Assembly: GCA_005888295.1 (NCBI GenBank)
Contig: VAWP01000110.1
Coordinates: 1-55,557, forward strand
From: Actinomycetota bacterium
GTDB lineage: Bacteria > Actinomycetota > Acidimicrobiia > Acidimicrobiales > AC-9
Length of the DNA: 55,557 nucleotides
Direction: 5' to 3'
This document shows positions 10,550 to 55,557 of this stretch, piece after piece. A model generated the notes under the pieces. That model was given only the letters and a program-made list of their open reading frames with translations, did not search any database and was not told the DNA's origin. How positions within the stretch are numbered: position 1 is the stretch's first letter; the number at the start of each line of letters is the position of its first letter. Both the position numbers and the translations under genes were made by a program.

Positions 10550-12171
10550 TCACATCATCCCGCCCATGCCGCCCATACCTCCCATGCCGCCCATGCCACC
10601 GCCGGCGGCGGCAGCAGCGGCCGCGGCGGGGTCGGGGCCCTTCTCGGGCTTGTCGGCCACCAGCACCTCGGTCGTGAGGAGCAGGCCGGCGATGGAAGCG
10701 GCGTTCTGCAGGGCCGAGCGGGTCACCTTGGCCGGGTCGATGACCCCGGCCTTGAGGAGATCCTCGAAGGCACCGCTGATGGCGTTGAGGCCGGTCGTGC
10801 CACTCTCGGCCTCGACCTGGCGCACGACCACGGCGCCCTCGAACCCGGCGTTGGCGGCGATCCAGCGCGTGGGCTCCTCCAGGGCCTTGCGGACTATGTC
10901 GGCCCCGGTGGCCTCGTCATGAGGGCGGTACCCCCACCGGCCACCACGCCTTCCTCGATGGCCGCCCGGGTCGCCGAGAGCGCATCCTCGATGCGGTGCT
11001 TCTTCTCCTTGAGCTCCACCTCGGTGGCGGCGCCCACCTTCACCACGGCGACGCCCCCGGCCAGCTTGGCCAGGCGCTCCTGGAGCTTCTCCCTGTCCCA
11101 GTCGGAGTCGGTGTCGTCGATCTCCCGCTTGATCTGGGCGATGCGGCCCTTGATGTCGTCCTGGCTGCCGGTGCCCTCGATGATCGTGGTGTCGTCCTTG
11201 GTCACGATGACGCGGCGGGCCTGACCCAGCAGGTCGAGGGTCGCGTTCTCCAGCTTGAGGCCGATCTCCTCGGAGATGACCTGGGCACCGGTGAGTACGG
11301 CCATGTCCTCGAGCATGGCCTTGCGGCGCTCGCCGAACCCCGGCGCCTTGACCGACACCGAGTTGAACGTGCCCCGGATCTTGTTGACCACGAGGGTGGC
11401 CAGCGCCTCGCCCTCGACGTCCTCGGCGATGATGAGCAGCGGCTTGCCGCCCTGCATGACCTTCTCCAGGACCGGGACGAGGTCGTGGACGGCGCTGATC
11501 TTCTGGTTGGTGATCAGGAGCAGCGGGTCGTCGAGCACGGCCTCCTGGCGCTCCGGGTCGGTCACGAAGTACGGCGACAGGAAGCCCTTGTCGAACTGCA
11601 TGCCCTCGGTGAAGTCCAGCTCCAGGCCGAAGGTGTTCGACTCCTCGACCGTCACCGTGCCGTCCTTGCCCACCCGGTCGATGGCGTCGGCCAGGACCTC
11701 GCCGATCGAGGTGTCGGCGGCCGAGATGGCAGCCACCTGGGCGATCTCGCTGCGGTCGTCGATCTCCTTGGCCTGCTCGAGGATGGAGTCGACCGCGGCG
11801 GCCACGGCCGTGTCGATGCCCCGCTTGAGGGCGGCCGGGCTGGCACCGGCGGCCACGTTGCGCAGGCCCTCCCGCACCAGCGCCTGGGCCAGCACCGTCG
11901 CCGTGGTCGTGCCGTCGCCGGCCACGTCGTTGGTCTTGGTGGCGACCTCCTTGACCAGCTGGGCGCCCATGTTCTCGAAGGCGTCCTCCAGCTCCACCTC
12001 ACGGGCGATCGTGACGCCGTCGTTGGTGATGGTGGGCGCGCCGAACTTCTTCTCGAGGACGACGTTGCGGCCCTTGGGGCCGAGCGTGACCTTGACGGAG
12101 TCGGCGAGCCTGTTGACGCCCGCCTCGAGGCCGCGCCGGGCGTTCTCGTCGAACTTGAGGATCTTCGGCAT
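10550..12171 (-). pseudogene. groEL: Chaperonin GroEL with broken reading frame (possibly a sequence artefact)
   Basis: The N-part (ORF 10894..12171) reads [52 protein letters not shown] and then hits a premature TAG. A second frame continues [52 protein letters not shown]. About 13-14 residues expected between GGGTAL and GDEATG are missing. Confidence 0.85.
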
Positions 12172-12476
12172 TACTTCTTGCCCTTCTTGGCCACCTTGGC
12201 CAGGACGTCACGGCCGGTGAGGATCAGCAGGTCCTCGCCCTCGATGGTGATCTCGGTGCCGCCGTACTTCGAGTACACGACGGTGTCGCCCACGGCGACC
12301 TCGAGAGGGATGAGCTCGCCAGTGTTCTCCGCCCGCCGGCCGGGGCCCACGGCCAGTACCTCGCCCTGCTGGGGCTTCTCTTTGGCGGTGTCGGGAATGA
12401 CCAGGCCGGACGCCGTGGTCTCCTCCGACTCGCTGGGACGCACGACGATCCTGTCGTCGAGGGGCTGAAGGTTCAT
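12171..12476 (-). CDS. groES: Co-chaperonin GroES
   Basis: 101 aa: [46 protein letters not shown]... TAATG overlap with the groEL start. Confidence 0.93.
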
Positions 12477-12520
12477 CTCCGCAGGCCTCCCTTTGGCACG
12501 GGTGTTGGCTTCCGTGCTGC

Positions 12521-12547
12521 TTAGCACTCTCAGATGTCGAGTGCTAA
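12521..12547 (-). promoter_or_regulatory. CIRCE operator (HrcA binding site)
   Basis: Perfect TTAGCACTC-N9-GAGTGCTAA (TTAGCACTCTCAGATGTCGAGTGCTAA), 45 nt upstream of the groES ATG. Confidence 0.85.
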
Positions 12548-12575
12548 CCCTAGCGACGGGCCCGTCGGCACGCAA
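12547..12575 (-). promoter_or_regulatory. Putative groES promoter
   Basis: On the minus strand: TTGCGT, 17-nt spacer, TAGGGT, with the -10 abutting the CIRCE element. Confidence 0.45.
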
Positions 12576-12608
12576 CCCCGCACCTCCGCCCGCGGGGCCG
12601 GCGGCGGC

Positions 12609-52800: not shown

Positions 52801-54054
52801 GCGGATCACCTCTTCGAGAATGTCCCAGACCTCCGGCCGCTCCTTTTCCACCATGCGTTTGGCGGCCTTGATCGTGCTGGCGAGGCCGTACAGTTCGAGC
52901 TTCGAATAGATGAACGGCTTGAACAGCTCGAGCGCCATCTTCTTCGGCAGCCCGCACTGGTGCAGCTTGAGCTCGGGACCGACCACGATGACCGAGCGGC
53001 CCGAATAATCGACCCGCTTGCCGAGCAGGTTCTGACGGAACCGGCCCTGCTTGCCCTTCAACATGTCGGACAGGGATTTGAGCGGCCGCTTGTTGGCGCC
53101 GGTGATGATCCGCCCGCGCCGGCCGTTGTCGAACAGCGCGTCGACCGCCTCCTGCAGCATGCGCTTCTCGTTGCGCACGATGATGTCGGGGGCGCGCAGC
53201 TCGATCAGCCGCTTCAGCCGGTTGTTGCGGTTGATCACGCGCCGGTAGAGGTCGTTCAGATCGGAGGTGGCAAAGCGGCCGCCGTCGAGCGGCACGAGCG
53301 GCCGCAATTCCGGCGGAATGACCGGGACGACCTCGAGGATCATCCACTCCGGCCGGCTGTTGGATTCGATGAAGGCTTCGACGAGCTTGAGCCGTTTGAC
53401 GAGTTTTTTACGACGCGCCTCCGAGTTCGTGTCGCGCAATTCGTCGCGCAGCCTCTCCTTCTCATCGGCCAGGTCGATGGCGGACAGCATCGTGCGCAGC
53501 GCCTCGGCTCCTATCGAGGCGGTGAACTGGTCGTCGCCGTAATCGTCCTGGGCCTTCAGATACTCATCTTCGTTCAGCAGCTGGCGCTGCTTTAGCGGGG
53601 TCAGCCCCGGCTCGATGACGACGTAGTTCTCGAAATAGAGCACCCTTTCGAGATCCTTCAGCGTCATGTCGAGCAACAACCCGATGCGGCTCGGCAGCGA
53701 TTTCAGGAACCAGATGTGCGCGACAGGCGAGGCGAGCTCGACGTGGCCCATGCGGTCTCGCCGAACTTTTGACAGGGTCACCTCGACGCCGCATTTCTCG
53801 CAGATGATGCCGCGATATTTCATGCGCTTGTACTTGCCGCACAAGCATTCGTAATCCTTGATCGGCCCGAAGATCCGAGCGCAGAACAACCCGTCGCGCT
53901 CCGGCTTGAACGTCCGGTAATTGATCGTCTCCGGCTTCTTGATCTCGCCATAGGACCATGAACGGATGCGCTCCGGGCTGGCGATCGAGATCCGGATCTG
54001 ATCGAAGCTCTGCGGCCCGCTAACCTGGCCAAAGATGTTCATCAACTCGTTCAT
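49888..54054 (-). CDS. rpoC: DNA-directed RNA polymerase beta' subunit (alphaproteobacterial type)
   Basis: 1388 aa from ATG 54054: [70 protein letters not shown]... The 22 extra N-terminal residues in the track read through the REP-like spacer. Confidence 0.95.
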
Positions 54055-54085
54055 CAACGACCCCTTTCGGTCACTAACGCCGTCA

Positions 54086-54156
54086 TGCCCGCGAAAGCGG
54101 GCACCCAGGGCGAGCGGCACAGTGCCACCGGCTCTGGACCCCCGCTTTCGCGGGGG
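54086..54156. repeat. REP-like pair of GC-rich hairpins in the rpoB-rpoC spacer
   Basis: TGCCCGC-GAAA-GCGGGCA (54086..54103), GGCAC-A-GTGCC in the centre, and CCCCCGC-TTTC-GCGGGGG (54139..54156). Spurious ORFs across it translate as PAFAGMT and RHPRESGG. Confidence 0.6.
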
Positions 54157-54192
54157 TGACGAGTATTTGTGAAGGATTCGCGCAACTTGTGA

Positions 54193-55557
54193 TCAGTAAC
54201 CACGCTGCTCGAGCTCGACATTAAGGCCGAGCGACCGCAATTCCTTGACCAGCACGTTGAAGGATTCGGGAATGCCGGCCTCGAAATTGTCGTCACCCCG
54301 TACGATCGCCTCATACACCTTGGTCCGGCCGGAAACGTCGTCCGACTTGACCGTCAGCATCTCCTGCAGGGTGTATGCCGCACCGTAGGCCTCCAATGCC
54401 CAAACCTCCATTTCGCCGAATCGCTGGCCGCCGAATTGGGCCTTGCCGCCGAGCGGCTGCTGCGTGACGAGGCTGTACGGACCGATCGATCGCGCGTGTA
54501 TCTTGTCGTCGACCAGGTGATGCAGCTTCATCATGTAGATGTAGCCGACTGTCACCGGGCGGTCGAATGCCTCGCCGGTGCGCCCGTCGATCAGCGTAAC
54601 TTGCCCCGAGGACGAGAGACCCGCGCCCTCCAGCATCGCAACGATATCCTCCTCGCGAGCACCGTCGAACACCGGGCTCGCCATCGGCACGCCGTGAGCG
54701 AGGTTGCCGGCCAGCTCGACCAGCTCCTCGTCCGGGAGACGATCGATTTCGGCCTTCTGCTCGCCCTGGTACATCTCGCCGACGAGGCCGCGCAATTCCC
54801 CGTTCGCCGACCCGCGCCGCACATTGGCAAGCAACTCGCCGATGCGCCGGCCGAGACCCGCCGCCGCCCAACCGAGATGGGTCTCAAGGATCTGGCCGAC
54901 ATTCATACGGCTCGGCACGCCGAGCGGGTTCAACACGATGTCGACCGGTGTCCCGTCCTCGAGATAGGGCATGTCCTCGGACGGCACGATGCGCGAGATG
55001 ACGCCCTTGTTGCCATGCCGGCCGGCCATTTTGTCGCCCGGCTGCAGCTTGCGTTTCACCGCGACAAAGACCTTGACCATCTTCATGACGCCGGGTGGCA
55101 GCTCGTCGCCGCGCTGCAGTTTTTTCCGCCATCCTTGCGTCATCACGGATCGAGATTTGCCGCCACAGCGCCGGGGGATTCTCAGCCAGCACCTCCTCGG
55201 TGATCTCGGTCCCCGACTTCATCCCCCTGGGGCCGCCGACCGCGGTCTGGCCGAGCAACAGCTCCTTCAGCCGTGCGGCGAAGCTGCGCTCGAGGATGGC
55301 GCGCTCGTCGTCGCGGTCCTTTGCCAAACGTTCGATCTCGGCCCGTTCGATCGCCAGTGCGCGCTCGTCCTTGTCGACGCCACGCCGCGAGAACACCCGC
55401 ACCTCGACGATCGTGCCCGACACGCCGGGGGGGAGGCGCAGCGACGTGTCGCGGACATCGGACGCCTTTTCTCCAAAGATCGCACGCAGAAGCTTCTCTT
55501 CCGGCGTCATCGGCGACTCGCCCTTTGGCGTGACCTTGCCGACGAGGATGTCGCCCG
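54193..55557 (-). pseudogene. rpoB: DNA-directed RNA polymerase beta subunit, 5'-truncated by the window and frame-broken near 55130 (possibly a sequence artefact)
   Basis: The upstream frame is open to the window end: [54 protein letters not shown]. The downstream frame reads [61 protein letters not shown]. The frames meet at a T6/A6 run (55120..55125). Confidence 0.85.

Follow-up and report, generated by a model that had tools for sequence, protein, structure and literature searches.

Seven short internal deletions in conserved genes of a soil Acidimicrobiales scaffold point to an assembly artefact

The window analysed here is the whole of scaffold C51 (55,557 bp, containing no N) of the metagenome-assembled genome (MAG) GCA_005888295.1. 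Seven conserved genes on it, namely groEL, rimI, tsaE, a threonine dehydratase gene, rpsN, a RibD_C gene and rpoB, each lack a short internal block, and all seven lesions were confirmed as real features of the sequence record. The missing blocks of the six actinobacterial genes were found in near-identical contigs assembled independently and that of rpoB in 12 relatives. Judged from this comparison of assembled sequences, the lesions are almost certainly an assembly artefact of some kind and probably arose where an assembler or scaffolder joined two contigs.

Seven missing blocks and the sequences that retain them

The MAG comprises 198 scaffolds (3.72 Mb) assembled from a short-read soil metagenome and is used as the species representative in the genome collection that was searched. 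The first five lesions were measured against three genomes of the same genus, G005, G002 and G006, the RibD_C lesion against ten independent contigs and the rpoB lesion against 12 alphaproteobacterial relatives. In G005, a long-read assembly of 10 contigs, contig C3 is syntenic with and 93-97% identical to window positions 1-42623 and 44909-48.2 kb; G002 and G006 align to the window at ~85%. Independent contigs were found by exact-protein look-up using L14, GroES, S9 and S12. Those of the same species come from several soil metagenomes and include JGI assemblies, k141-type (MEGAHIT-style) ENA contigs, a Logan contig and scaffolds named "CRIT18-1". These contigs are 99.6-99.9% identical to the window and jointly span 2.2-47.3 kb without a break. 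A Pfam search agreed with the gene identities at the lesion sites.

The first-pass annotation, made from the window alone, had reported that seven conserved genes each miss about 11-30 codons and had taken this for a property of the record rather than biology. Comparison of each locus with close genomes bore this out. All seven lesions lie where they had been placed, the blocks measure 11-27 codons, and alignment to relatives showed that groEL, rimI, tsaE and rpoB change frame while the other three genes stay in frame (Table 1). The relatives carry the blocks. Against the near-identical contigs no further deletion or other indel of at least 5 bp was found in the window between 2.2 and 47.3 kb, so no lesion had been overlooked in that interval.

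Table 1. Coordinates of the lesions and other features of the window
Feature	Position	Strand	Description	Bases lost	Microhomology
groEL junction	10918..10919	-	gene ~10550-12171; frameshift	46 bp	0 bp
rimI junction	13835..13836	-	GNAT acetyltransferase gene between tsaB and tsaD, ~13648-14197; frameshift	47 bp	0 bp
tsaE junction	15245..15246	-	gene ~14919-15390; frameshift	56 bp	0 bp
Foreign patch	15246..15415	-	5' part of another organism's tsaE, directly right of the tsaE junction
Threonine dehydratase junction	25241..25242	+	PALP+ACT gene 24319-25446; in frame	81 bp (27 codons)	2 bp
Strain-variant patch	34855..35066	-	ends at the S14 junction; 14-15 clustered mismatches against L133 and L136
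rpsN junction	35071..35072	-	S14 type Z gene 35045-35197, between the S8 and L5 genes; in frame	33 bp (11 codons)	2 bp
RibD_C island	42624..44908	.	RibD_C - HxlR - RibD_C, between the S10 and L3 genes of the ribosomal superoperon
RibD_C junction	44220..44221	-	gene 44084-44641; in frame	57 bp (19 codons)	2 bp
Palindromic element	44925-45008; ~21629-21702; ~40697-40772; 42533-42613		~75-84 bp; near-perfect hairpin, -63.6 kcal/mol
Chimeric crossover in fusA	48263..48288	-	Acidimicrobiales to alphaproteobacterial sequence
Alphaproteobacterial segment	48289..55557	-	7.3 kb, Rhodospirillales/Stellaceae-like; fusA 5' end, rpsG, rpsL, rpoC, partial rpoB
rpoB junction	55124..55125	-	gene 54193-55557, runs off the scaffold; frameshift	71 bp	0 bp

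G005, G002, G006 and G007 all have the groEL block, as do the contigs L140, L141 and L145 (99.7-99.9% identical). That of rimI is present in the same three contigs, and the intact protein has 197 residues in L140, L141 and L143-L146. The tsaE block was found in L143, L144, L146, L147, L149 and G005; an apparent sharing of the 56-bp tsaE deletion by L146 was an effect of a split BLAST alignment, and L146 has the block. For the threonine dehydratase the block is carried by L150, L151 and L155, the intact protein being 402 residues long in the last two.

The S14 and RibD_C lesions can be followed at the protein level. The S14 protein translated from the window has 50 residues instead of 61, and the 11 that are gone include the last zinc-binding cysteine. 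The 61-residue form is called on 9 of 10 independent contigs with an identical L14 (the tenth, L138, ends inside the L5 gene), and the S14 block is the sole indel in L133, L135 and L136 and is also present in L139. The RibD_C protein of the window has 185 residues and all of its homologues ~200-204; one of them, P0001 (204 residues), matches it fully except for the 19-residue block. This block is present in ten contigs, L120-L129, of JGI, ENA and Logan origin. An index of 153 billion genes held no other record of either the 50-residue S14 or the 185-residue RibD_C protein, the intact forms being found on at least nine and on ten contigs, respectively. No close RibD_C orthologue was found in 80 related genomes. 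In the case of rpoB, 10 of the 12 alphaproteobacterial relatives (87-95% nucleotide identity) have exactly 71 bp more than the window, L158 has 72 bp more, and the surplus in L079 amounts to a net 71 bp, divided among three pieces.

Fifteen independent contigs of the same species compared with G005 showed no clean indel of this type.

The other public assemblies have irregularities of their own. L146, a JGI contig, has lost 75 bp in tsaE and 16 bp that split tsaD (L146:700-3600), the dehydratase gene of L150 is split by a gap of 10 N, and L154 carries N-free losses of 15-37 bp. On several long contigs with an identical S12 (L158-L167) the gene calls for rpoB, rpoC, fusA or tuf are fragmented, which hints at a different type of frameshift error there.

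Junctions, gaps and the genome-wide pattern

Lesions of the same type were found across the MAG. An alignment of the MAG with G005 over 453 kb (96% identity) contained 42 clean deletions, mostly of 27-81 bp, on 16 scaffolds, or ~1 per 11 kb. Their lengths modulo 3 are evenly divided among the frame classes (15/15/12). The nine clean insertions in the MAG relative to G005 fall 7/1/1, which is the natural in-frame bias. The deletions are thus spread irrespective of gene, frame and organism, and extrapolation of one lesion per 11 kb to 3.72 Mb gives ~300 or more deletions in the MAG that no N would reveal. The observation that both taxonomic parts of the window are affected held, as rpoB lies in the alphaproteobacterial part, although these parts are not halves, the alphaproteobacterial one making up 13% of the window.

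The junctions are blunt. Microhomology at the seven sites is 0-2 bp (Table 1), and genome-wide 34 of 40 deletion junctions have 2 bp or less, with a mean of 1.5 bp against 0.84 bp in controls. Mis-joined read overlaps, one cause that had been proposed, are disfavoured by this result, as blunt junctions argue against the false merging of overlaps and equally against replication slippage. Direct repeats, as replication slippage or microhomology-mediated deletion would leave at the end points, were looked for and not found at the seven junctions, and microhomology or an overlap mis-join was rejected as the cause.

There are 138 N runs of 2-330 bp on other scaffolds of the MAG. Seven of them could be placed on G005 and all seven fell short of the true gap, the deficit being 29-267 bp (median 36); in one example 2 N stand for a gap of 38 bp. 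Gap estimates in this MAG are therefore biased low, and since the N runs understate the true gaps, gaps of a few tens of bases would have received no N at all. The size range of the lesions matches that of such gaps, and the N-free losses were shown to form a continuum with the under-sized N gaps.

Sister assemblies are interrupted at some of the same sites. In the scaffold L150 a run of 10 N coincides exactly with the left edge of the dehydratase lesion (81 bp), and close by, at window position 25236, an aligned N-free stretch of L154 starts. A gap of 431 N in the scaffold L141 lies over the tsaE lesion. A contig start of L141 that seemed to coincide exactly with the tsaE junction was an alignment effect, the real start being 16 bp earlier.

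Possible indirect signs of contig ends are the foreign or variant patches or private mismatches that adjoin four of the junctions (tsaE, S14, rimI and groEL). Over 165 bp the foreign tsaE patch has ~50 mismatches to L141, a sequence elsewhere 99.9% identical to the window, and the identity to G005 dips as well. The variant patch at the S14 junction likewise stands out from sequence that is otherwise 99.7% identical to L133 and L136. At rimI and groEL there are private mismatches at 13826 and 10895, 9 and 23 bp from the respective junctions.

Two further observations concern the tsaE locus. The foreign patch, which encodes the P-loop end, has the 56-bp lesion on one side and the UDG gene on the other. 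The MEGAHIT-type contig L140 also becomes chimeric, at ~15215, so that the locus appears to tangle in several assemblies.

Five of the seven lesions had been described as lying at roughly 10-kb spacing. The intervals are 9996, 9830, 9149 and 10904 bp, and the spacing is loose. An exact 10-kb periodicity, such as an artefact of chunking would produce, was rejected: the intervals of 9.1-10.9 kb stay irregular even when the lost bases are restored, and no interval between lesions on other scaffolds of the MAG falls in the 9.1-10.9 kb range. For these reasons the spacing is most likely a coincidence around a mean of ~11 kb.

Origin of the lesions

The first-pass annotation had named collapsed scaffold gaps as a possible cause, and this gains support from the low-biased N runs and from the N gaps and contig ends found at the same sites in sister assemblies. 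In the mechanism we propose, the left contig would end at the lesion, often at a branch point between strain variants, and the next contig would begin 33-81 bp further on. The scaffolder would have put the gap at zero or less, so that no N was written and the two ends were abutted bluntly; contig ends may also have been trimmed during scaffolding. The same process would have operated throughout the MAG, with about one event per 11 kb, and where N runs were written they would have come out too short. As to the specific step, we infer, with reasonable but not high confidence, a scaffolder whose gap estimates were biased low or came out negative and which may also have trimmed contig ends. An artefact is also indicated by the breakage of essential single-copy genes (rpoB, rpsN and tsaE) and by the misjoin between phyla inside fusA on the same scaffold.

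Several observations weigh against this explanation. A contig end or an N gap in a sister assembly was observed at only 2-3 of the seven sites. Among the 40 deletions examined genome-wide, 2 show microhomology of 10-11 bp and are possibly natural. A post-hoc Monte Carlo simulation with seven random points gave p ~7e-4 for the ~10-kb chain, which has no explanation other than chance. The CRIT18-1 contigs have sample accessions in their names that are presumably those of the Angelo project; these accessions matched no paper. A link of the MAG to that project and to IDBA-UD is no more than a possibility suggested by the sample names of the near-identical contigs.

Local assembly errors are a described class (Chen et al. 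2020, Genome Res, PMC7111523; PMC5220378) and reportedly stand out in IDBA-UD scaffolds. IDBA-UD (mink 30) was the assembler used for soil MAGs of the Angelo grassland project (PMC6784897), and such errors are the target of the script ra2.py (Brown et al. 2015, cited in PMC5220378). The lesions of the window resemble this class in being short wrong stretches, probably at contig joins, which break genes. They also resemble it in being carried into public databases, and the N gaps of inaccurate length belong to the same problem. They differ in being blunt, N-free losses of 27-81 bp at ~1 per 11 kb, accompanied by underestimated N runs. The cited papers give the class and not this signature.

An artefact from another step of the pipeline is possible but rather unlikely. 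Variant paths may have been collapsed inside contigs, a program for closing gaps or fixing errors may have been faulty, or short N runs may have been removed selectively before deposition. The variant patches adjoining the junctions would fit such a step, a related soil study applied a scaffold-error correction script to its bins (PMC6784897; PMC5220378), and the losses in L154 show that N-free deletions occur in other public scaffolds from these samples. However, microhomology would be expected from gap closers that fuse overlapping extensions and was not seen, and N runs of 2-9 remain on C14, C103 and C121 together with N-free deletions. The removal of N gaps, which the first-pass annotation had wanted checked in the provenance of the assembly, is unlikely to have been wholesale. 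A global stripping of N was rejected, as N runs of 2-330 bp are still present and occur on scaffolds that also have N-free lesions.

That the deletions are real in the population, through recent pseudogenisation, reductive decay or replication slippage, is very improbable. In its favour are the cleanness of the deletions, the preserved frame in three of the seven genes, and a second groEL gene on scaffold C84, with which the loss of one copy could be tolerable. Yet populations 99.6-99.9% identical to the window, from many samples, all have the blocks, no other record contains the shortened S14 and RibD_C proteins, and rpoB, S14 and tsaE are essential. Real deletions would also hardly have lengths uniform modulo 3 genome-wide while the insertions are mostly in frame, nor would they be expected at junctions without direct repeats in both of the unrelated organisms of a chimera. 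Genuine pseudogenes should be common to close relatives or independent samples, and these lesions were found in neither. The window has many broken conserved genes in common with genomes undergoing reductive evolution, for example those of host-restricted bacteria. In contrast to such genomes, the lesions here are absent from near-identical populations, strike indispensable genes, keep to a single narrow range of sizes and take no account of the reading frame, and there is no expansion of mobile elements beside them. The massive recent pseudogenisation that real lesions had been said to imply is therefore rejected.

A variant of this idea, in which part of the cells of the sampled community, or extracellular or relic DNA, really bears many short frame-blind deletions, is barely credible; if true, it would call for an unknown process that generates blunt-end deletions in two phyla in soil.

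Just as remote is an alteration of the window after deposition, with bases removed. The window contains no N, lesions of the same type occur on at least 16 other scaffolds of the MAG, and in a protein index with NCBI among its sources for RpoA the longest contig carrying the RpoA of the window is 55,557 bp long, the length of the window. Judging by this entry, the window appears to be the record as deposited. Joining of contigs without an N remains the preferred origin of the seven lesions.

The chimeric join, the RibD_C island and consequences

The scaffold is also chimeric. Positions 1-48.28 kb group with Acidimicrobiales. At 48.2-48.3 kb the identity to G005 drops from 0.98 to ~0.7 and that to alphaproteobacterial loci climbs to 0.88. 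The remaining segment is only 54-80% identical to G005, and its RpoC has 92-95% protein identity to MAGs labelled Alphaproteobacteria, Stellaceae or Rhodospirillales. Window positions 48249-48288 are the 40 bases at the end of another scaffold of the MAG, C37, and from 48289 the window follows the alphaproteobacterial relatives, from which C37 and G005 differ. This overlap and switch place the join inside fusA, in a short stretch common to both organisms. The Acidimicrobiales rpoB and rpoC of the MAG are on C37, which is the true continuation of the Acidimicrobiales part. An abrupt change of nearest relative is thus accompanied by duplicated single-copy markers elsewhere in the bin.

As in other inter-genome chimeric contigs, the donor switches inside a conserved gene through a shared stretch of ~26-40 bp, and the genuine copies of the duplicated markers are in the same bin, on C37. 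Unlike in those, the join is between phyla, and the operon synteny tuf-fusA-rpsG-rpsL-rpoC-rpoB is perfect, which hides the join from checks of gene order.

The RibD_C island is real in this species, being present in independent contigs. It is absent from G005, G002 and G006 and is flanked by palindromic repeats. The MAG has 12 copies of this element that are at least 60 bp long, distributed over 6 scaffolds. The Logan contig L126 lacks the copy at 44925, and on this evidence the element looks like a small mobile repeat resembling a miniature inverted-repeat transposable element or a repetitive extragenic palindromic sequence. The intergenic region 21554-21945, which holds one palindromic repeat, is ~220 bp longer than in G005.

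The missing blocks are not a biological feature and reveal no new biology. By extrapolation, the genes of the MAG would be broken or shortened by some 300 or more invisible deletions, and the chimera puts foreign rpoB, rpoC, rpsL and rpsG markers into the bin. Such errors pass on to pseudogene counts, protein families, marker-gene trees and structure predictions, an example being a 50-residue S14 without its zinc site. Blunt losses of 27-81 bp, uniform modulo 3, together with N runs that are too short, form a signature for which MAGs of similar pipelines can be screened. The main value of the finding is as a warning on the data quality of the public genome GCA_005888295.1.

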